Positions 2,320 through 19,943 of a stretch of 64,000 bases of DNA are shown here, piece by piece (the stretch's first letter is position 1; each line of letters opens with the position of its first letter). Location: the NCBI GenBank assembly GCA_038087875.1, contig CM075991.1, positions 2,356,001 through 2,420,000 of the forward strand, written 5' to 3'. The notes beneath the pieces were generated by a model. The model had not been told where the DNA came from. It made no database searches and was given only the letters and a program-made list of their open reading frames with translations. The position numbers and the translations under genes are program-made. The stretch comes from Malacoraja senta (taxonomy: Eukaryota).

Positions 2320-4006
2320 TCAACGAAGCACGCTTTTAATGACAACATTCTTGGTCGATGTTCCATCCTTCAGGAAAACCTTGACATTTCCCTTCATCTT
2401 TCCTTGGCTAAGAGCCACATATAGTTGTCCATGCTGAAATACCGGTTTGTTGAGGTAGATCAACACCTTCCGCATTGTTTGTCCTTGTGCTTTATGGATC
2501 GTCATAGCAAAACTTGATTGAATGGGGAATTGGGTCTGCTGAAGGGGAATGTCTTCACCTTCTGTCAAAATGAGTGCTATCCTAGGAATGAGAACAATGT
2601 AATCTTTGAAGGCTCCCATGTTGATTCTTGCAACGATCAGATTATTGTGTAGCTCTTCCACAATCATCCTCGTTCCATTGCATAGCTTTGGCAGTTCCAA
2701 GTTTCTCATTAATATGATTGGAGATCCTTTTTTCAACTCCAATTTGTGTGGTGGTAATCCAGAGAGCTCAAGTGAATCGAGGAATCCTGTTGGGAAGTGA
2801 GTATCATGAGTTCCCTCAGTGACAGCATTGAAAGAAAAGTACTCCTTAATGATTCCAGGAAAGCGTTTGATGCATGTAGAATTGATGCTTCTCATGGTAT
2901 AGTTGTGAGGAACCAAGATACAATTGTTGGAGAATAATTCTGCAGGATTGTCAAATGTGGGATAGATGAAATCAATACAATCCTTCAGTGTTTCTGCTGA
3001 TAGAAGCATGTCTTGTGGGATTTCAATTTCATCGTCTTCATTCTTTAAAATCTTGTCTTCTCCAACTTTCAACAAAAATTGAGAATAGTCGCCTTCTCCC
3101 TCTGTCAATCGCGTATTTGTGTGCAATTGAAACTTGGTGAAAAGTCTCCACAAGTACGATTTCTTGATGCAGGCATTTTCAACATCAGCATAATTTCCCC
3201 TTTTCACCACAGCAAGTAGTTGTCGACAATCGCCACAACAAACGATAAGAATGCCGCCAAAAGGCTTAGTGTTGCTGAAGACATCTTGAAGAGTTCTGAC
3301 CACCACTTCAAAGCTTTCTCGCCTAATCATTGGACATTGATCCCAAACAAGGACTTTCACTTGCATCATGAAATGTGCCGTCTTAGAGTTCTTCTCGATG
3401 TTGCAGAATGTATCCTCGGCCACTTGGATGGGTATCTTGAATCGAGAATGTGCAGTTCTTCCACCAGGCATTAATGTAGCTACTATCCCAGAGGATGCTA
3501 CTATGTTGACCTCTATAGTTGACCTACTATAGTTGACCTCTAACTATGGAGAGGATCAAATTGGTGATAAATGTTTTTCCTGTTCCTCCTGGTGCATCAA
3601 TGAAAAACATTGAATGGAGATTCCTTTTCAAGGAGTTGTACACCTGGTCATACACTGCTCTCTGCTCATCATTCAGCAGAGGCTCATTCTCCTCAACAAA
3701 CTGCTGTTGTTCATTTCTTTCGTATTGCAATTCCTGCAGCAATTCTGGATTGTCACCATCAAGGTGCATCCTTCCATTTCTTGGTTGTGGCAAATTAAAG
3801 AATTCCATTGTTTTGTTGTAATTCTCAAGCTTGTCTTGAATATACAACAGAGCCTGATCATGATGCTTTTCTTCAATCACGATATTAGGATCATTCATTG
3901 TTCTCCGTTCTCCTTCAAGGTAATCTTTAGACATTGAATTCTTGAAGTGATCCCATAATTGTCGAGGATCGTTGATCTCAGTATTCGTCAACAAAACAAC
4001 AAACAA
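2320..4006 (-). pseudogene. Helitron RepHel helicase domain (Pif1 family), disrupted
   Basis: ORFs 3527-4006 (FFIDAPGGTGKTF, Walker A) and 2320-3471 (GGRTAHSRF, FGG..GDCRQLL, LCNGTR, QFP..FAMTIHKAQGQT, HGQLYVALS). Break at ~3506-3541; non-canonical DQ (Walker B) and LSQ (motif VI); truncated upstream at a CA repeat (~4010). Confidence 0.92.
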
Positions 4007-4162
4007 ATCTCACACACACACACACAATCACACACACAATACTAAAATGTCAAGTAACTTCAGAACGTGGTGAATATACAGTGTGTAAAACAAATGTTTA
4101 AAGCCTCCTGTCGAAGCTCCTGCTGAAGTAAAAACGTGCTTTAAATAACATCCAAGAAACAC

Positions 4163-4439: not shown

Positions 4440-4702
4440 AAAAGTCAAGCCAATTGGGCAAAAACACTTAGCAAGCCAACAAAAGACATTTGTTTTGCTG
4501 AAAGCACTTTAAAAAGTAAATTAGGGCAAAAACACTTAGCAAGCCAACAAAAGACATTCGTTTTGCTGAAAGCACTTAAAAAAGCCAATTAGGGCAAAAA
4601 CACTTAGCAAGCCAACAAAAGACATTCGTTTTGCTGAAAGCACTTAAAAAAGCCAACTGGGCAAGAACACTTAGCAATCCCACAAAACACATTTGCTGAA
4701 AA
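4440..4702. repeat. ~65-68-bp tandem repeat (~4 units) inside the Helitron
   Basis: GGGCAAAAACACTTAGCAAGCCAACAAAAGACATT..TTTTGCTGAAAGCACTTAAAAAAG repeated. Confidence 0.9.
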
Positions 4703-5337
4703 CCACATCCTGGGGACTCACCGTGGAGTAGACGTGTGTTCAGTGTTATTCGCAGCTCAGAGAGCCGTGACCCTCTCACTTTCACATCTGTCAGAGACTG
4801 AGTGAGGCATGACACTTCCGGGTTTTATAGTCCCTCTCCATGCCGCCAGCGGTTGCAGCAGAGAGAATGGCGAATTTTTAAAAAACATTAATATCTCTCT
4901 GATTTTTCAACGATGGGAAAAATCCTCTGGTCCAGGCAGGCGGAGGGGGGCTCTGTGCGAGGTGGCCAAAAACGACGGCCGTAGGTGGCGGCGTTCTCTC
5001 GGATATCAAAGCAAAGCGAGCCAAAAGCGGTCAAGATCTTACTTTTTTTGTAATATAGATAGATGTAAGAGCAATAAACTGCAGATTTCGCATAAATATG
5101 ATCTTAGTTTACTGTGAGGGAAATCTTTGTTTTATGATAACTAATTTAGAATGTAAGATACTTACACCATGGAACAGTTTAAGAAAGAACTGCAGATGCT
5201 GGAAAAATGTAAGGTAGACAAAAATGCTGGAGAAACTCAGCAGGTGAGGCAGCATCTATGGAGCGAAGAAATAAGTGACCTATAGCCCAGTGACATTAGG
5301 TTAGACGAACTAAGTACCAATGTCTGACTATGGGACG

Positions 5338-5672
5338 ACAGATGGCGCAATGGGCTAAGTGTTCGGCTGGCAACCGGAAGGTAGCCGGTTCGAATCCCGC
5401 TTGGAGTGCATACTGTCGTTGTGTCCTTGGGCAAGACACTTCACCCACCTTTGCCTGCGTGTGAATGTGTGTGAGTGATTGGTGGTGGTCGGAGGGGCCG
5501 TAGGCGCAGATTAGCAGCCACGCTTCCGTCAGTCTGCCCCAGGGCAGCTGTGGCTACAGAAGTAGCTCACCACCACCGAGTGTGACTGAGGAGTGAATGA
5601 ATAATGCGATGTAAAGCGCCTTGAGTATTAGAAAGGCGCTATATAAATCCCATCCATTATTATTATTATTAT
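5338..5672 (+). mobile_element. tRNA-derived SINE with L2-type 3' tail (AFC-like)
   Basis: A box TGGCGCAATGG, B box GGTTCGAATCC, central TGTGTCCTTGGGCAAGACACTTCACCC, tail GTAAAGCGCCTTGAG..AGAAAGGCGCTATATAAAT plus (TTA)n. Flanked by duplicated TATGGGA; absent from the right TIR arm. Confidence 0.88.
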
Positions 5673-7149
5673 TATGGGAGTGTGCAGGGGGTCACCTGAA
5701 ATGAACGGAATTGGGAGTCTGCCGGGTACCACCCGCTGCGTGTAGACCTGGGGGGCCGCCCCAAGGGGCCAAAAAATAGGTACTGAATAGATGAATGAGG
5801 TACCACTTAAATCCACTATCATGGTGTGCTCACTGCCACGCCTATATCAACAACACAAACGGCAGACATTTTTCTGGCTGCAAAAGGCTCGCCAGACCCC
5901 CCCCACAAAGGGCCTAAACAATGGGCTAGCATATAGACATATATAAAAATGATGCCAAATGAACAAGTTGAGTTCATAGAGTACAAAATGGGTTATGCCA
6001 GACAAATAGTCCGCTGCACTAGAGGTACCAGACACCCCAAAAATGGACATCCTAGACCCTGCTGTCCAACTAGGCTAGCCTAGATATTGTGGGTACCAGC
6101 TAAAACCAAGTTTAAATGATCTATCACACCTTGGGGAATATAAAATGACCTATGACAGAACAATTATCCGCTGCCTTGGGTCTACCAGACCCCCTAAATG
6201 GGCCCTTGGGCCCATCTAGGCTAGCCTAGATATTAATGGTACCAGCTAAAACCAGGTTTAGACAATCAATCACAGCCTAGGAAATACAAAATCACCCATG
6301 CCAGAATGATACCCATTGCCTTGGTCCTACCAGACTCACCAAATAGTCCTTTAATTGCCCAACGGGGGGGGGGGGGGGGGAGGGGGTATGATCGGTACAA
6401 GGCAACAGATAATTGCTCTGGCATCGGTCATTTTGTATTCACCAAGGTGTGATTGATCATTTAAAGGAAACATTTTGCCCGATGGCAAACATGTGGTCCA
6501 AAATTGACATGCTGGTCCCAAGCTCATTTGTATATGGCCCAATGTATTTTTAAAGTTTATTATTAATATACTTGTGTAAGGAATGATTCATTAAAGAATA
6601 ACAGACTCAAATGTTAACCCTACCCCTAAGGAAATTTTATTTCGTTATGTTACATAGTTACATTAAACCTTTAAATTTGGAAGATATTAACTCCAAATTG
6701 TGTAACATATTCTGTACTTCAATATGTTTACCTGAGAATAATTCTGAAAAGAAAACTGGGTCTACCGTTACTCAGTTCTTAGGTATGTCCATTTTAAAAC
6801 ACACAGTCTGCACCAAAAGCAGTCTGAAGTTGTCATTAGCAAAATTGGCAAAAAGTGAACAGCTGGGACATTTTTTTGCAATGAGAAAAAAATTTGTTTG
6901 ATAACTGTTTCTAAGTTTTATATATGTTTTAATATAGATGATATGATCTTCACAACCATGTGGAAAATTTAATGGGTTGTGCATCGAGATGTTAAGAAAA
7001 ATCACAAATATACCCCAAAATGCTCATTTTTGCATTTATTTCAAGCTCATTGCATGCTATGATATCCCGGTAGCGTAATGGAATGGTAAACCATCATTAC
7101 AGTTTACTGGACCCTCCGTGTACATTGCCTTACTACTAGTACTAGCTAG

Positions 7150-7251
7150 TAGTAAGTCTGAAGAAATGTTTCGGCCCGAAACGTTGCCTATTTCATTCGC
7201 TCCATAGATGCTGCCGCACCCGCTGAGTTTCTCCAGCAATTTTGTCTACCT
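7150..7251 (+). mobile_element. Short Penelope-pLTR-derived element with degenerate hammerhead motif
   Basis: CTGAAGAAATGTTTCGGCCCGAAACGTT; 13-bp TSD TAGTACTAGCTAG at 7137-7149 and 7252-7264. Confidence 0.8.
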
Positions 7252-8436
7252 TAGTACTAGCTAGGTTTGGTAATTTGCCGATGATAATATTAGCCTGCAC
7301 TGTACTAACAAGCTTTTAACGGGAGAACAATGTGGACTAAAAATACTCTCCTTGAAAGGTTGTTCCTCCATTTGAATGTAGAAAAATTAAAAAACCGAGG
7401 TCATCGAAGTATTTTTTTTATTAGTTTGGTTCAGGGTGGTAAACCTAACAAACATAAACAACAAATCATCAGTTTATGAATCACTAAAAAATTAACATTA
7501 TTGTAGCAATTATCTTCCTGATCTGTGATATAAGGTAAGTAAATATTGCAAATGTTCCAAAATTCATAAGAGGATAAGAGGTGGTGGGTTTCTTAAATGT
7601 GTGAGCAGAGAGACAGAGGGGTGTCAAATGAGGGTAGAAGCAATAGGTAGCAAGGTGAAAAGTAAAAGTGGCAGGCAGCAAAATCCAGGGCAAAAATCAA
7701 AAAGGGCCACTTTTCAACATAATTGTATAAGGGGTAAGAGCGTTGTAAAAACAAGCCTGAAGGCTTTGTGTCTCAATGCAAGGAGCATTCGTAATAAGGT
7801 GGATGAGTTGAATGTGCAGATAGCTATTAATGATTATGATGTAGTTGGGATCACGGAGACATGGCTCCAGGGTGACCAAGGCTGGGAGCTGAACATCCAG
7901 GGATATTCAATATTCAGGAGGGATGGACAGAAAGGAAAAGGAGGTGGGGTAGCATTGCTGGTTCGAGAGGAGATTAACGCAATGGAAAGGAAGGACATTA
8001 GCTTGGAAGATGTGGAATCGATATGGGTAGAGCTGTGAAACACTAAGGGACAGAAAACACTAGTGGGTGTTGTGTACAGGCCACCTAACAGTAGTAGTGA
8101 AGTTGGGGATGGCATCAAACAGGAAATTAGAAATGTGTGCAACAAAGGTAAAACAGTTATAATGGGTGACTTCAATCTACATATAGATTGGTTGAATCAA
8201 ATTGGCAGGGGTGCTGAGGAAAAGGATATCTTTGAATGTATGCGGGATAGTTTTCTAAACCAACATGTAGAGGAACCAACAAGAGAGCAGGCTATTCTAG
8301 ACTGGGTATTGAGTAATGAGGAAGGGTTAGTTAGCTGTCTTGTTGTGCGTGGCCCCTTGGGCAAGAGTGACCATAATATGGTTGAGTTCTTCATTAGGAT
8401 GGAGAGTGACATTGTTAATTCAGAAACAAGGGTTCT

Positions 8437-11400
8437 TTTTTTTTTTAATTATTATTTTTATTAGAAGTACGGTAAATTACAATAATACACAGGACATATA
8501 TCTTAATACATTTTTTGTACCGCTTCATTTTTTTGAGCTTTAAGAAAGAGATAGAAGTAAGGAAAGTAAAGAAAGTGCGCAAGAGTCGTGAAGTGCAAGA
8601 GAGTGTTGGGAAAAGAAAGCCCCTTAGAAAAGAAGTTAGAGAAGGAAGTAAAGTAAGAAAGTAGACCCTAGAAAAGAAAGAAAAAGAAAGTAGGAACAAT
8701 CGCTCTATTATGACATTATACTCCGCAGAAAGGGGACTACCAACCAAGTCTGTTTTTGTTGTTTTACCTCCCATTACCAGGTCCTGATACCATTTATTTA
8801 TTTATTTATTTTTACAATTACTATTGCACCTCATGCTTGTAATAGGTCCAGAAACGTAGACCACGTCTTTTGGAATTTGTCTGCTTTACCTGCTAAGAGG
8901 AATCTCATCTCTTCCAGATGTAATGTTTCAAACATATTTGATGTCCACATTTTTATTGTTGGTGTGGGCGCATTTTTCCAGAATTTAAGTATGAGCTTTT
9001 TTCCCATTATTAGCCCGTAATTGAATAAATTCTTCTGATACACGTTTAATTCAGGGATACCTTCCGATATTCCAAAAATGATCCATTCTGGTTTTGGTAC
9101 CAGTTTTATTTTAATTAATTTTGAAAAAATATACAAATATTTCGTACCACAATTTTTGGATTTTTGTACAAAAAACAAAAGAATGCGCTATGGTAGCTTC
9201 TTGACACAGACATTTATCACAGATTGGTGAAACATTAGGAAAGATTTTATTTAATTTCATTTTTGAATAATATAGTCTATGTAATGTTTTGAATTGGATG
9301 AGCGTATGTCGTACGTTGATCGAACATTTATGCACCTGTAGTAAATGATTATCCCAGCTCTCTTTTGAAATTTTTATAGCTAATTCTTGTTCCCAGTCTC
9401 TTCTAATTCCATCTGTTGTGGGTATTTCTATGTTTAAAATGATATTATATAAGTACGATATTAGATTAGCTGATTCCGCCTTTGTCTTTATTGCTTCATC
9501 TAGTAAGTCGGAAGGCATATTATGATAGTCTTTTGTGTATTTTTTCAGATAATCACGAATTTGAAGATATTTAAAATATTGGTTATTTTCAAATTATATT
9601 TCAGTTGTAGTTGTTGAAATGATAGTAATTTTCCCAATTCATACAGATCTTCGAGCGTTTTGATTCCCATTCTTTCCCATTGTATAAATGATTTGTCTAT
9701 GATTGAAGGTTTAAACGATGGGTTATTGACTATTGGTATTGAGAGAGATAGGTTTCTTAATTTTAGATTCTGTTTTATTTGTTTCCATGTTCTAATTGTG
9801 CTATATATAATTGGATTTTTATTATAATTTTTATTATTCAAATTTATTGGAGAGAGGATAATCGCTCCTATATTACTCGGGGAGCAGTCCCCTTTTTCCA
9901 TTATAATCCAGTCCGCCTGCTGGGCAGAATTGTCGAGCAGGTGAATCATATTTTTAATATTTACTGCCCAATTATAATACATAAAGTTAGGGAGCGCTAG
10001 ACCCCCCAACTCTTTTCGTTTATCAAGGTGTGCACTTTGTATTCTATGGGATTTATAATCCCATATAAAATTTGTAATGTCTGAGTCCAATTTTTTGAAA
10101 AACTTTTTTGGGAGATATATAGGTATTGATTGAAATAGGTATAGGATTTGTGGTAAGAAAATCATTTTTATAGCATTTATTCTGCCTATTAAGGACATCG
10201 GAAGTGTTTTCCAGAATTTAATCAAATTATTTAATTTCTTAAGTAAGGGATTATAATTGGCTTTAAACATATCCTGGTAATTTCTAGTAATTTCAATTCC
10301 TAAATATTTGAATTTTTCTGTAGCTATTTTAAAGGGGAATTTCCTGAGGTGTGTTGAGTCTTTTGGTTTTATCGACATAATTTCACTTTTGTTCCAATTT
10401 ATTCTATATCCTGAGAAGGATCCAAAGTCCTCAATTAAATTTAATATATTTGGTATACTAATTTGTGGTTTTGTGATGTACAGTAGTACATCATCGGCAT
10501 ATAGGGATATTTTGTTATTTGAATATTTTGTATTATAACCGTAAATATCCAGGTGTGTTCTTATTTTTTCAGCAAGGGGTTCAATTACCAAAGCAAATAA
10601 CAGCGGTGATAATGAACATCCTTGTCTATTGCCCCTTGATAGTTCAAATTTCAGCGATAATATATTATTAGTTAGTATTCTAGCCGTAGGTTTGTTATAT
10701 AATAGTTTTATCCATGCAATGAAGTTCTCTCCCAATTGGAATTTTTGCAATACTTTAATCATATAATCCCATTCTACTTGATCAAACGCTTTTTCTGCGT
10801 CCAGTGAGATGATAGATAACTCTTCGTAATGAGATTTATGTGAGTGCATTATGTTAAGCAAACGTCTCAAATTATTGAATGAATGTCTCTTAGGTATAAA
10901 TCCTGTTTGATCCTCATTTATTAGTCTACTAACATACCTGCTTAGTCTACTGGCTAGTGTTTTCGCTATTATTTTTTGATCCGTATTTAACAAAGCAATA
11001 GCTCTATATGATCCTGGTTCTTCTATATTTTTAATCTTTTTTAAGTATTAATATGATCGTTGATTCTGCTGGTGTTTCAGGTAAGCTTTGCTCTTTAAAA
11101 GCATATGTATACATTTTCTGTAATCGTGGAGTAACTATGTCGTAAAAAGATTTATAAAATTCATTACTGAATCCGTCTTTTTCCATTCTTTAGTGTTTTT
11201 ATTGTGTCTTCTATCTCCTTAGAAGTAATTTGTGCTCCCAGTTCCTCTTGTTCCCTCAGTTCTAATTGTGGTAGGTTACAGTTATCTAGAAATTATTATT
11301 GTCTATTAACGTTTTAGATGTGTATAGATTCTGGTAAAATTGAGCAAATCTTTTATTGATATCCTTGGGTAATGTTAATAATTCCCCTCTGTCTGATTTA

Positions 11401-13327
11401 ATCTTTAATATTGCATTCTCTTTTTCCCATTTTTTCAGTTGGCGTGCTAGGAGTTTGTGGGGTTTGTCCCCGAATTCGAAGTGTTCTTGTTTTGTGATTT
11501 GAAATAATGTTATAACTTTCTCTGACAGTAATTTATTTAGCTTGAATTTCAATAGTAGGATTTTATTATGTTTATCCATAGTTGGATCTTTAGCATTATC
11601 TGTATCTAATTGTTTTATTTGTTCTTCTAAATGTCTTTGTTCATTCTTATTCTTTTTATTTTGATAAGCTTGAAATGAAATAATGACTCCTCTAATAAAT
11701 GCTTTGAAGGATTCCGATAATTCTGGTGTATCATTTATCTCAAAAAATAGATCCATCTGTTTTTTTAGATATATACTCCCTTGTGGGTCTTTTAAAATTT
11801 GCGAGTTAAACCTCCAGAACGATTTATTCATAGACATTCATAGACATTCCTTCTAGTTTTAAAACAAAAGTTAACGGAGAGTGGTCTGAGATCGCATTAG
11901 TGTGGTATTTAGGGTTCATAGTGTGCGGAATTAATTTTGTATCCACAAGAAAGTAGTCTATCCGTGAGTATGTTTTATGCACCGTTGAATAAAACGAATA
12001 ATCCCTTCCCGTCAGGTTTGCAATCCTCCACACATCTGCTATATTTGTGTTTTCCATATATGTATGTAAAAGTTCACTGGTTTTAGATTTCATATTACCT
12101 TTTTGTTTTTGCATCGATTTATCTAGATAAGGGTCTAAAACACAGTTAAAGTCTCCTCCAATTATAACATTTTGATAATTAAATTCTGCAATTATATTCA
12201 GAATTTTATTAAAAAATTAAGGGTTATCAAAATTGGGCGCATATATGTTTACCAGCGTAATTGGCGTATTATTGATCTCTCCTGCTACTATAAGGTATCT
12301 CCCTTCCTTATCTGAAATAGTATTCTTTGATTTAAATGGAATTCCTTTACGAATGATGATTGCAGTACCTCTAGATTTGGAAGTGAATGAAGAGTGAAAT
12401 GTTTGTCCTATCCAGTTCGCCCTCAGTCTCGTCTGATCTTGATGTTTAAGATGCGTTTCCTGTAGAAACGAAATGTCCATGTTGTATGATTTCAACTGAG
12501 CTAGTATCTTGCCCCTTTTAATAGGTTCATTAATACCCCTTATATTCCAACTACATTGTGTGATTCCTCCCATTTTCTTTTGATTGTCGTCATACATTTT
12601 TACCAATTTTGATGACCTTCTTTATTATGGTGCATTCATACCTCAGGACTGTGGTTATTTTGGGGGCATTTCTATTATAGACTTCCTTGGTAGTTCCCCT
12701 CTGCGATTGCCCTTGAAAAAAACCCACATAGATGTGACATATTGTGATTAAAAAAAAAAGTATATCAAATAAATTTACGGTGTCTGAGTTTCCGACACCG
12801 TAGTGAGTGCCCCACTCGTCTGTGGGGTACGACATCGATATCGCTTCCGGCGTAGATGTTATGAGGTTAGCCCAGCTGCCTTTATTACCCAAAACCTAGG
12901 AGGTCTGTACCAAATCAGTTCTATTTCACCCAGTTGCAGTATATATATATGTTTCATTCCGACTTCAAATGTATTCAGTTACATATATTCCTCACTCTTT
13001 ATCTCTTAACTATTTGTAATTGGTTTTAGTATTGTTAAAAGTGAGCTGTTCGCTGAAAGGGTTAACCGGAGTCAGGCTCCTGGAATTATGCCAGGTGCCT
13101 AGTCTCCTCTCCTCCCCACTCGAGCTGCGGAACATATGTAATTACTGTTGTCTGCGTTATAAAGCAGGCAACACATTTTTATCAGTTTCAATTGCTATTT
13201 CCATATTAGTATTGTTAATTATTAATTATTATTGATTCTCAATATTTTGTAAAACTATATAAGCCATGTGATGTTTTTCGCTCTCAGCACAGCAGATCGT
13301 CACTCCCATGTTATCAGTCTTTCCTCG
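8437..13327 (-). mobile_element. L1-clade LINE, 5'-truncated, with poly(A) tail and 15-bp TSD
   Basis: Poly-T at 8436-8446; TSD AGAAACAAGGGTTCT at 8422-8436 and 13328-13342; ORF2 pieces span endonuclease to C-terminal Cys-rich domain. Confidence 0.95.
8831..12606 (-). pseudogene. L1 ORF2 (APE endonuclease, reverse transcriptase, Cys-rich C-terminus), frameshifted
   Basis: SWNIRG..FLQETH..NIYAPN; YSRIDYF..SDHSP; SLDAEKAFD..RQGCSLSPLLF..LYADD..KYLG; CDKC..H..C; split over ORFs 12217-12606, 11824-12114, 11286-11837, 9545-10993, 9111-9518 and 8831-9178. Confidence 0.93.
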
Positions 13328-15583
13328 AGAAACAAGGGTTCTGAACTTAAAGAAAGGTAACTTTGAGGGTATGAGACGTGAATTGGCCAAGATTGACTGG
13401 CAATTGATTCTTAAAGGGTTGACGGTGGATATGCAATCGAAGGCATTTAAAGACTGCATGGATGAACTACAACAATTGTTCATCCCAGTTTGGCAAAAGA
13501 ATGAATCAGGGAAGGTAGTGCATCCGTGGATAACAAGGGAAATCAGGGATAGTATCAAAACAAAAGATGAAGCGTACAAATTAGCCAGCAAAAGCAGCCT
13601 ACCAGAGGACTGGGAGAAATTCAGAGTCCAGCAGAGGAGGACAAAGGGCTTAATTAGGAAAGGGAAAATAGATTATGAAAGAAAACTGGCAGGGAACATA
13701 AAAACTGACTGCAAAAGTTTTTATAGATATGTGAAGAGAAAGAGATTAGTTAAAACAAATGTAGGTCCCTTGCGGTCAGAAACAGGTGAATTGATCATGG
13801 GGAACAAGGACATGGCAGACCAATTGAATAACTACTTTGGTTCTGTCTTCACTTAGGAAGACATAAATAATCTGCCGGAAATAGCAGGGGACCGTGTCAA
13901 ATGAGATGGAGGAACTGAGTGAAATCCAGGTTAGCCGGGAAGTGGAGTTAGGTAAATTGAATGGATTAAAGGCCGATAAATCCCCAGGGCTAGATAGGCT
14001 GCATCCCACAGTACTTAAGGAAGTAGCCCCAGAAATAGTGGATGCATTAGTGATAATTTTTCAAAACTCCTTAGATTCTGGAGTAGTTCCTGAGTATTGG
14101 AGGGTAGCTAATGTAACCCCACTTTTTAAAAAGGGAGGGAGAGAGAAAACAGGGAATTACAGACCAGTTAGTCTAACATCAGTAGTGGGGAAACTGCTAG
14201 AGTCAGTTATTAAAGATGGGATAGCAGCACATTTGGAAAGTGGTGAAATCATTGGACAAAGTCAGCATGGATTTACGAAAGGTAAATCATGTCTGACGAA
14301 TATGCACTTGCTGATACTTGATCCTAACCACGTGTCAGTCATTGTACCTCTCTGCAGGCCATGTGCTCTGGGCATGGCATTGACCCAAGGCATTGGTTTT
14401 CATGTAAATTATCAACTGAACACTATAACTGAATCATGCATGATATCCCTGCATTATAATAGCAAACTATAACTATGTAGCAAAGTAAAACAACTTACCT
14501 CATTCAGCCTTACAGTGATTCTTTACTGCAAAAACCACCATCCAATCCGATGTTGATATATTGTTTGGCTGCAGCGAAGGAGAGCTTGTCACCGCATTCA
14601 GCCAAATGGCCAAATATATAGAAAGCCAAATAGGACACTCCAACAGTTTATACCCACTCTTGTCCCTCTTTTCTCATTGAAATGGGCTTTTGTGGAAATG
14701 GTCGATAAAGTGATTAATTTTTTGACATGAGTCACTTTGTATTCACCAGCTGAAGGTTGTGGTTGATCAAATAAACCTGGTTCAGCTCATATCTTTAATA
14801 CCTAGACCAGCCTACTTGGGCCCAAGGACTTATGAGGGGGGGGGGGGGGGTCTGGTAAGGCCAAGGCAATGGGTTATCATTCTGGCATGGGTCATTTTGT
14901 ATTTCCTAGGCTATGATTGATCATCTAAATGTTATTTTTAGCTGGTACCTTTAATATCTATGCTAGCCTAGATTGGCCCAAGGGCCCATGGTCCAATGTA
15001 TTAGATAATTGTTCTGTCATAGGTCAATTTATATTCCCCAAGGTGTGGTAGATCATTTAAACTTGGTTTTAGCTGGTACCCACAATATCTAGGCTAGCCG
15101 AGTTGGACAGCAGGGTCTAGGGTGTCCATTTTGGGGGTGTCTGGTACCTGTAGTGCAGCGGACTATTTGTCTGGCGTAACCCATTTTGTACTCTATGAAC
15201 TCAACTTGTTCATTTGTCATTATTTTTGAGTGGTACCTTGCTCGTCTATATGCTGGCCCATTGTTTAGGCCCTTTGTGGGGGGTCTGGCAGGCCTTTTGC
15301 AGCGGGAAAAATGTCTGCCGTTTGTGTTGTTGATACAGGCGTGGCAGTGACCATGGTAGTGGATTTAAGTGGTACCTCACTCATCTATTTAGCACCCCAT
15401 TTTTGGTCCCTTGGGGGTCCCCCAGGTCTACACGCAGTGGGTGGTACCCGGCAGACTCCCAATTCCGTTCATTTCATGTCACCCCCTACACACTCCCATG
15501 GACAGACATTGGTACCTAGTTCGTCTAACCTAATGTCTCTGGGCTGAAGGTCAAAAGGTGACGTTTTGGGTCGAGACCCATGG

Positions 15584-15870
15584 AACTGGTGGAGCTGCTG
15601 CCTCAAAGCACCAGAGACCCACGTTCAGTCCCGACCTCGGGTGCCGTCTGTACAGTTTGCACCTTCTCCCTGTCACCACATGAATTTCATTCCGGGTGCT
15701 CCGGTTTCCTTCCACATTCCAAAAGGCTAATTAATTAGCTTCAGTAAAATTGCCCCAAGTGTGTAGGGAGTGGATGAGAAAGTGGGATAACATAGAACTA
15801 GTGTGAATGGGTGCTCGATTGTCGATGTGGACACAGCGGGCCAAAGGGCCTGTTTCCATGCTGTATCTAA
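15584..15870 (+). mobile_element. HE1/V-SINE-like tRNA SINE, diverged
   Basis: tRNA-like head, central GGGTGCTCCGGTTTCCTTCCACA, tail GGGCCAAAGGGCCTGTTTCCATGCTGTAT shared with CR1/HER1-like 3' ends. Confidence 0.75.
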
Positions 15871-16883: not shown

Positions 16884-17953
16884 AGTTATCATACTTTCCC
16901 CAACTACTTCCTCTGGCATAAAACACCAAGTGCTGGAGTGACTCAGCGGCTCAGGCAACATCTCTGATGGACATGGATAGGTGACATTTGTGGTTGGGAC
17001 CTCAGTCTGAAGAAGGGTCTCCACCTGAAACGTCACCTATCCATGTCCTCCAGAGATGCTGTCTGACCCGCTGAGTTACTCCAGCACTTCGCCTTCTATG
17101 CACAAATTCCAGCCTCTGCACTTCCTTGTTCCTCTACTTCCTCTGGAAGTTCATTCCATCCACCAAGCAAGCTCAGTGTGAAAAACGCACCCTTCCGGTT
17201 CCTATTAAATCTTTCCCCTCTCAACTTAAACCTAAACCCTCTGGTTTTAGATTCCCCTACTCTGGGAAAAGGGACCGGCAGATCAGCGGGACACGTGAAG
17301 GGGGGCATCGACAGCGGTGGGGCGTCGGCACTGGTGGGGCGTCGGCGGCGGTGAAGCCTCGCGGTGGTAGCGATGCTCCGCGGTCGACGCGAGCGTGGGG
17401 GGGGGGGGGAGGGGGAGGGGTAGGGAAGAACAATGGATGATGGGGAGGGAGGGAGAACAAAGGACAATGGGGGCCCGCCATGAGTGTGACGATGGGTAGA
17501 ATATGAGGGGGAGCCGGCGTGCTTCGTAACTTTGTCAGCGCCGTAGGTTGCCGCTATTTGCACACATTGTCTATGCAAGCAACGAATCTCACTGAGCCCA
17601 GTCAAATGCGACAATAACGTATTCCATCCCATCCCAACTATTCCCCCTCGTGATTTTATACATCTCTGGAAGATCATCCCTCAGCCTCCTGCGCTCCAAG
17701 GAATAAAGTCCAAGCCTGCCCAAATGCTCCCTGTAGCTCAGGCCTTCAAGCTTGGTGTGGCCAGCAGTTATCGCCCATGCAAAATTGCCCTCGAGGAGGT
17801 GCTGGTGAACCAACCCCTTAAAACGCTGCAGCCTTTCTACTGAAGGCACTCCCACAGTGCGGGTCGGTAGATGGTTCCAGGATTGAGATTCTATTGGAAG
17901 ATATTTTACAATTATTATTTGCGGTGATGCTATTGCGTTTGTTAATTCCACAG

Positions 17954-19505: not shown

Positions 19506-19720
19506 TAAGAAAGAACTGCAGATGCTGGTTTAAACTGAAGGTAGACACAAAATGCTGGAGTAACTCAGCGGGTGAGGCAGCATCTCTGGAGAGAAGGAAT
19601 GTGTGACGTTTCGGGTCGAGACCCTTCATCTGAAGAAGGGTCTTGACCCGAAACGTCACTCATTCCTACTCTCCAGAGATGCTGCCTATCCTACTGAGTT
19701 ACTCCAGCATTTTGTGTCGA
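19506..19720. mobile_element. Fold-back pair of Penelope-pLTR-derived repeats with hammerhead motif
   Basis: Minus copy then plus copy; CTGAAGAAGGGTCTTGACCCGAAACGTC at 19630-19657. Confidence 0.8.
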
Positions 19721-19943
19721 TCCTCATGGTCATCCATTTTGTTTCTCCTCCCCAACCAAACTCATCACCCTGTTACCCACACACTCCACTAACTGGGTCC
19801 TCTCACCCCTACCCCCGACTGTTCTTGTACGACCACCACCATCAGTCCCAAATTTGGTCTCACTCCACCTTTCTTATCAGATTCCTAATCTACACCCTTT
19901 GTTGTTACTTCTTCTGGTATAGACACAAAGTGCTGGGGTAACT

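Follow-up and report, generated by a model that had tools for sequence, protein, structure and literature searches.

A probable foldback DNA transposon with inverted arms of ~145-bp units in Malacoraja senta

A stretch of 64,000 nucleotides from Malacoraja senta (GenBank assembly GCA_038087875.1, contig CM075991.1, positions 2,356,001 to 2,420,000 of the forward strand; hereafter the window, numbered from its first letter) was analysed for an element that had been described from the letters alone (the sequence-only reading) as an unclassified fold-back transposon. Two long arms in inverted orientation were found to enclose an interior with nested retroelements and to split a copy of a dispersed repeat (Table 1). 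The element is very probably one cut-and-paste DNA transposon, now decayed, with a foldback architecture; it is non-autonomous, and this copy cannot move itself. The history at the locus comprises an insertion into the host repeat, followed by four later retroelement insertions and one deletion.

Results

Inverted arms and their ends

The left arm (5277-6335, interrupted by a segment which we take to be a short interspersed nuclear element (SINE)-like insertion) and the right arm (14850-15552) are inverted repeats of ~700 bp each, the long terminal inverted repeats (TIRs) of a foldback TIR transposon. Self-BLASTN aligned 5674-6335 with the reverse of 14850-15499 at 87.4% over 674 columns (gaps included) and 5276-5335 with 15553-15494 at 90% of 60, and the inner ends of the arms lie ~8.5 kb apart, which bears out the sequence-only reading of two arms at that distance that are reverse complements with substitutions and indels. 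Counted as substitutions alone, the arms differ at 46/636 and 6/59 positions (52/695, 7.5%). Once the SINE-like insertion that later interrupted the left arm is set aside, the arms measure 703 bp on the right and ~715 bp on the left; the long inverted arms proposed earlier were therefore present, but not at their proposed length of ~730 bp.

For placement of the ends, 14200-15640 was aligned to contigs of four runs (organisms B, C, D and F), and end positions were counted in 32 contig pieces of 29,486. Five pieces among the matches listed extend beyond 15540. Three of the five (organisms F, C and D) end at 15552, with 244, 60 and 102 unaligned letters past this position, respectively, according to the record coordinates; one of the remaining two reaches 15556 and one simply ends at 15549. 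Because the contigs of three organisms stop at 15552, the element ends are GAC...GTC at 5277 and 15552, and the bounds 5276/15553 given earlier were each moved inwards by one base. The earlier termini, TGACC or, further in, YAGCCCAG, were replaced by GACC, the end set by the same contigs: TGACC was rejected since 15553 is absent from the contigs, and a start at YAG was rejected because it would leave the host repeat unable to rejoin and because the conserved end is 6 bp more external.

Units within the arms

Related, degenerate units of ~140-157 bp were found, four per arm plus one extra unit inside each arm. Measured from the right end, the palindrome GGTACC recurs at 37, 177, 316, 473 and 604 bp, and two more sites lie in between; the steps on the right arm are 140, 139, 157 and 131, and the last step is 146 on the left arm, where 15 bp are not deleted. 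The arms hold 12 of the 20 GGTACC sites of the window, though they make up about 2% of it. When the arms were cut at the GGTACC period, units 2-6 could be aligned with one another, and their relatedness was scored as z against 100 dinucleotide shuffles. Neighbouring units gave z of about 10 (R2-R3), 11-13 (R3-R5) and 15-40 (units 4-6), so that tandem units related at z up to 40 do lie inside the TIRs; weak pairs were R3-R4 (z 2-3) and L2-L3 (z 0.1-0.2). Two control segments gave z mostly under 2, the highest being 3.7. A fifth unit perhaps forms the arm tip (the terminal segment), to judge from a borderline similarity (z 2.4-3.4). Each unit scored 46-63 against its own mirror partner and up to 40 against its neighbours; the closer match of mirror partners suggests that the units diverged first and that the arms were then copied as wholes.

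The units expected to start at ~6070 and ~6217, the partial inverted unit near the left arm and the extra right-hand unit (near 14690-14825) were all recovered; rather than being restricted to the inner arm, as had been claimed, units form most of the arm by shuffle z. Runs of G at 6365-6388 and 14835-14850 occupy the position of the C-rich block of the inverted unit and of unit R5, respectively. At 14836-14854 the contigs of organism B differ in sequence, and for this reason the G run may have expanded in this copy alone. The unit length of 140-157 bp is near the length of a nucleosome core.

Insertion site

The split host repeat, presumably pLTR-like, continues across the element: its halves are in register with 25/25 window copies that cover the insertion site, which upholds the earlier claim that the element splits a dispersed repeat and was inserted as one unit. 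The majority sequence of these copies is AATAGGT followed by GACG. The left flank ends in AATAAGT and the right flank begins with AAAAGGT and then GACG, an overlap of 7 bp in which each side is one change from the majority and which is likely a target-site duplication. The simplest reading of its length is 7 bp; it could possibly be 8 bp with one base lost, which takes the same number of events, substitution being the commoner event. With ends at 5277/15552, only overlaps of 6-7 bp reach 60% identity, and a 9-bp reading requires an end one base inward, which is not favoured by the contigs. Of the 25 window copies of the host repeat, 2 have the AAAAGGT version, so that a recombinant origin keeps a small probability.

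Interior, nested insertions and deletion

Two long interspersed nuclear elements (LINEs) are nested in the interior, one on the + strand (7560-14301), presumably of the CR1 type, and within it a second one (8437-13327), which we take to be of the L1/Tx1 type. LINEs insert starting from their 3' end, so the missing 3' end of the first LINE points to a later deletion in the element interior, which probably also took some of the element. At 14301 a different continuation was found in the second window copy of this LINE and in 117-133 contigs in each of three runs. The nested LINE is 5.6-6.0% different from another window copy, slightly below the divergence of the arms, which fits the nesting order. 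Subtraction of the insertions left 3076 of 10276 bp, in agreement with the roughly 3 kb estimated before; owing to the deletion that removed the 3' end of the nested LINE, this is a minimum and not the original length.

The longest frame of the right interior was ordinary (matched by 210/300 shuffles). Pfam on 14 frames of the region returned the nested LINEs only, and on 18/18 read-through frames of the interior two chance-level matches and no THAP/P or MULE (Mutator-like element) transposase. No match was obtained with phmmer for one of the six right-interior frames against 1.84 billion proteins, or in word searches against longer proteins with two more right-interior frames and a 99-codon left-interior frame; three right-interior frames and most left-interior frames were covered by Pfam alone. 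In the ESM Atlas, the best scores of two frames of 52-56 amino acids were 0.87 and 0.81, below the lead level of 0.9. Because the interior is deleted, the missing protein match says little. A nested TIR element was looked for in the interiors and not found.

As side observations, the 99-codon frame (6602-6901, +) is stop-free and lies in the AT-rich left interior, and 15/300 shuffles reach its length (borderline). The second LINE is near full-length, with a 500-codon reverse-transcriptase frame, and is present once in the window. The second pLTR-like insertion went into a short CTAG-rich palindrome (7129-7156) with perfect arms of 11 bp.

Table 1. Features of the locus, in window coordinates
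Feature	Position	Strand	Basis
5' half of split host dispersed repeat (presumably pLTR-like)	5177..5276	+	BLASTN to many window copies; register vs 25 copies
Left copy of likely 7-bp target-site duplication, AATAAGT	5270..5276	+	Host-repeat overlap; end set by contigs
Left TIR, outer 59 bp, starts GACC	5277..5335	+	6/59 substitutions vs 15494-15552
Later insertion (presumably SINE-like), ATT tail	5336..5672	+	Perfect 7-bp duplication 5329-5335/5673-5679; absent from right arm
Left TIR, remainder; units L2 5763-5905, L3 5906-6055, L4 6056-6201, L5 6202-~6350	5673..6335	+	BLASTN and unit alignment
Extra inverted unit just inside left arm, core 6381-6465	6362..6490	-	z 12-31 vs units 4-6; 83.5% of 85 nt
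Left interior, AT-rich (32-33% GC), no protein match; right border approximate	6466..7560	.	Pfam and word search
Second copy of pLTR-like repeat, later insertion	7150..7251	-	Perfect 13-bp duplication 7137-7149/7252-7264
Nested LINE, endonuclease part; 5' border approximate	7560..8436	+	Pfam Exo_endo_phos; 94% to second window copy
Second LINE, inserted within first LINE	8437..13327	-	Pfam RVT_1, Exo_endo_phos, zf-RVT; perfect 15-bp duplication 8422-8436/13328-13342
Remainder of nested LINE, ends inside reverse transcriptase	13328..14301	+	RVT_1 positions 5-55 of 205 only
Right interior, 40% GC, family part, no protein match	14302..14689	.	Contigs cover from about 14349 in 4/4 runs
Extra unit R6 and junction, right-arm orientation, no mirror partner on left	14690..14849	-	z 12-27 vs units 4, 5 and inverted unit; two contigs bridge to arm
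Right TIR, 703 bp, ends GGTC; units R5 14826-14985, R4 14986-15116, R3 15117-15273, R2 15274-15412, terminal segment R1 15413-15552	14850..15552	-	BLASTN, contigs, unit alignment
Right copy of likely target-site duplication, AAAAGGT	15553..15559	+	Host-repeat overlap
3' continuation of split host repeat	15553..15581	+	BLASTN; register vs 25 copies

Distribution of the family

The family is present in at least 8 organisms, in line with the expectation of a multi-species family. Of the words of 14302-15560, a fraction of 0.24-0.28 was present in 18 of the 23 listed runs (from 8 organisms) and 0.11 in two; three had none. The arm and the right interior were covered in 4/4 aligned runs, with a single variant seen in up to 45 contigs; contigs bridge interior, extra unit and arm, and by this coverage the right interior is common to copies in other organisms. 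The family is thus dispersed with a fixed end, 3/5 pieces among the matches listed stopping at 15552. Several contigs skip up to 1110 bp, as would be expected of deletion derivatives. One contig of 1684 nt extends inward from the arm with 795 letters that are unaligned to the right interior; this is compatible with an arm of the left type, with no proof of pairing. The window holds no further copy of the element, and the terminal and arm motifs gave no match in metagenome contigs, viral contigs or prokaryotic genomes. No RNA run among those listed held family words (run X20 is probably DNA).

Discussion

Comparison with known transposons

P-superfamily ends are CA...TG. In hAT elements the ends are usually YA...TR and the TIRs short, and hATw is the name of a hAT group with 7-bp duplications, for which the literature searched gave no duplication length. 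Long TIRs occur in Academ and Sola3, and Sola3 requires a TTAA target. Polintons end in AG...CT, Helitrons have neither a duplication nor long TIRs, and both can carry long or ~150-bp internal repeats. Published systems were compared as described in the available parts of the papers cited here. Galileo, a member of the P superfamily from Drosophila, has long, internally repetitive TIRs, duplications of 7 bp (sometimes 8 bp), tandem units of ~140 or ~210 bp and the target consensus GTANTAC (PMC4168063, PMC3573991). Tetris of D. virilis (units of ~220 bp, duplications of 8-10 bp) was assigned to Mutator, as are most foldbacks (PMC4079207), and Tm1/Phantom has 9-bp duplications and 14-bp units (PMC3169594). 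MULE duplications measure 8-11 bp, and the available part of the same paper reports that no MULE transposase was found in vertebrates (PMC6446971); G/C-rich ends and TIRs of up to 1193 bp are given for MULEs (PMC13359780). Repbase hAT families with 7-bp duplications are implied (PMC4455052). Duplications of 3-4 or 9-10 bp are given for Academ (PMC10045372, citing another paper) and of 6 bp for IS3EU and for Polinton (PMC10045372), and Kolobok has a TTAA target and purine-purine ends (PMC9587614). Since TIRs with tandem units of 140-220 bp have already been described in Galileo and Tetris, the architecture itself is not new.

With the Mutator-type foldbacks (Tetris, Tm1/Phantom and, from PMC6446971, Rehavkus), the element shares long composite TIRs with tandem units, a non-coding middle and ends that start with G; its G/C-rich first bases (GAC) and ~700-bp TIRs are Mutator features, though weakly diagnostic ones. 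The duplications of these foldbacks are 8-10 bp, in contrast to 7 (or 8) bp here (against the Mutator range of 8-11 bp, the element has 7 bp without an indel and 8 bp with one lost base), none of them is described from a vertebrate in the available parts of the cited literature, and no MULE transposase was found here. The duplication length of 7 bp is shared with hAT, but the YA...TR ends and short TIRs were not seen, and the inner YAG start was ruled out for hAT because the conserved end is 6 bp further out. The duplication lengths of Academ were not found, and Kolobok is similar in its purine-purine ends, but there is no TTAA flank as required for Kolobok and Sola3. The element cannot be filed in any known superfamily, as the sequence-only reading had anticipated in finding no exact fit among the signatures compared. 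If a single transposon is taken as given, its mobilising superfamily was most likely Mutator/MuDR-like, an assignment that we make tentatively; an unrecognised lineage is a minor possibility, a P/Galileo-like one a smaller possibility, and both a hAT with 7-bp duplications and all others together are doubtful.

Proposed mechanism

A DDE transposase would once have come from a gene in the part of the interior now deleted, or have acted in trans. By analogy with Galileo, whose TIR tandem repeats bind the THAP domain of its transposase (in the available part of PMC3688188), it may have bound the units at many places, brought the two ends together and excised the element, and the GGTACC blocks are candidate binding sites on the same analogy. 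Insertion would have proceeded through a staggered target cut of 7-8 bp. The units may have arisen by an old tandem duplication and later been kept mirror-matched between the arms.

Evidence against a single transposon and alternative explanations

Several points weigh against a single cut-and-paste transposon. The duplication is identical at only 5/7 positions, for which the chance at the divergence of the arms is about 9%, and it is known from one locus. One contig continues to 15556, and the pieces considered were 32 of 29,486. Paired inverted arms were seen at this locus only, the listed contig pieces being of at most 1684 nt with none spanning the element. No transposase remnant was found in the interior by Pfam (18/18 frames), phmmer (one frame) or word search (three frames), and binding to the units is an analogy alone. 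For a MULE origin, the duplication range of 8-11 bp and the lack of a MULE transposase in vertebrates, as given in the available part of PMC6446971, count likewise.

Among the alternatives, a lineage that falls outside the superfamily signatures described so far, its own being GAC...GTC ends, 7-bp duplications and TIRs that consist nearly entirely of ~145-bp units, would agree with the misfit to all signatures compared (MULE, 8-11 bp; Academ, 3-4 or 9-10 bp; IS3EU, 6 bp; Kolobok, TTAA, as given in the parts of the papers cited above) and with an interior that has no protein match; it was judged rather unlikely, since one degenerate duplication cannot tell 7 from 8 bp and a deleted interior makes the missing match say little.

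A Galileo-like foldback of the P superfamily, with a THAP-domain transposase and a 7-bp duplication, is less likely again. Long repetitive TIRs, the 7-bp (sometimes 8-bp) duplication, units of ~140-210 bp, deletion derivatives and nested insertions are all shared with Galileo as described in the papers cited above, and 7 bp is the simplest reading of the duplication here. The P-superfamily duplication of 7-8 bp is present in degenerate form, whereas the ends are GAC...GTC and not CA...TG, the majority target AATAGGT does not resemble GTANTAC, the units fill most of the arm, and Pfam gave no match to a THAP or P transposase in what is a deleted interior.

Independent insertion of two solo arms facing opposite ways, or recombination between two copies located in different host-repeat copies, would account for the imperfect duplication, the right-hand version of which is natural in 2/25 host-repeat copies, and for the interior deletion; chimeric Galileo copies with non-matching 7-bp flanks are known (PMC4168063, PMC3573991, in their available parts), and the arm has several times the summed depth of the interior, although this depth is not a copy number. 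We consider this improbable: both flanks belong to one repeat in one orientation and overlap by just 7 bp, and contigs with unaligned flanks at the end suggest that the family does not always target this site, which makes two independent insertions at one position improbable. A Polinton/Maverick-type or Helitron-related relic with surviving terminal repeats, to which the internal repeats of both groups and a PIF1-helicase element 1.3 kb upstream might point, is scarcely credible, for Polinton duplications (6 bp) and AG...CT ends differ, Helitrons have no duplication and no long TIRs, the helicase frames stop at 4009, before the split host repeat begins, and there was no match in viral contigs.

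Significance

As a single cut-and-paste transposon, the element is probably a new member of a described foldback architecture. The family was not found in literature searches, which could not reveal an entry in Dfam or Repbase, the place to expect a record of such a family. A search on foldback transposons in vertebrates and sharks gave nothing, as did one on MuDR end signatures, and among the papers listed in another search none mentioned chondrichthyans. For now it is another non-autonomous TIR family without a class, of use in repeat libraries. A minor possibility is that it is a relic of a vertebrate lineage outside the described signatures, or the first well-defined Mutator-type foldback of a vertebrate group, traceable in at least 8 species and with a parent encoding the transposase that could be recovered from the genomes of these species. 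Should long copies carry a MULE transposase, this would bear on whether MULEs are absent from vertebrates (PMC6446971, available part); should they carry an unknown transposase, a new lineage would be defined. With a fixed end and a family known from 8 organisms, both questions could readily be tested in an assembly. Ectopic recombination between long foldback arms can, in addition, cause inversions, as is described for Galileo (PMC4168063, PMC3573991).

Neighbouring features

Upstream of the element, PIF1-like helicase frames (2320-4009, -; E 1e-44 and 9e-9) lie between tandem arrays at 1766-1909 (30 bp) and 4447-4693 (68 bp); this region looks like a Helitron remnant and ends before the host repeat at 5177. 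The pLTR-like repeat at 7150-7251 and about 25 other copies carry CTGAAGA and GAAAC motifs that are reminiscent of a hammerhead ribozyme core; an Rfam scan of 1-30000 gave nothing meaningful and no hammerhead, and the fold of one copy was not hammerhead-like. Head-to-head pairs of pLTR-like repeats at 19536-19726 and 16916-17101 form near-perfect hairpins with arms of 86-95 bp.

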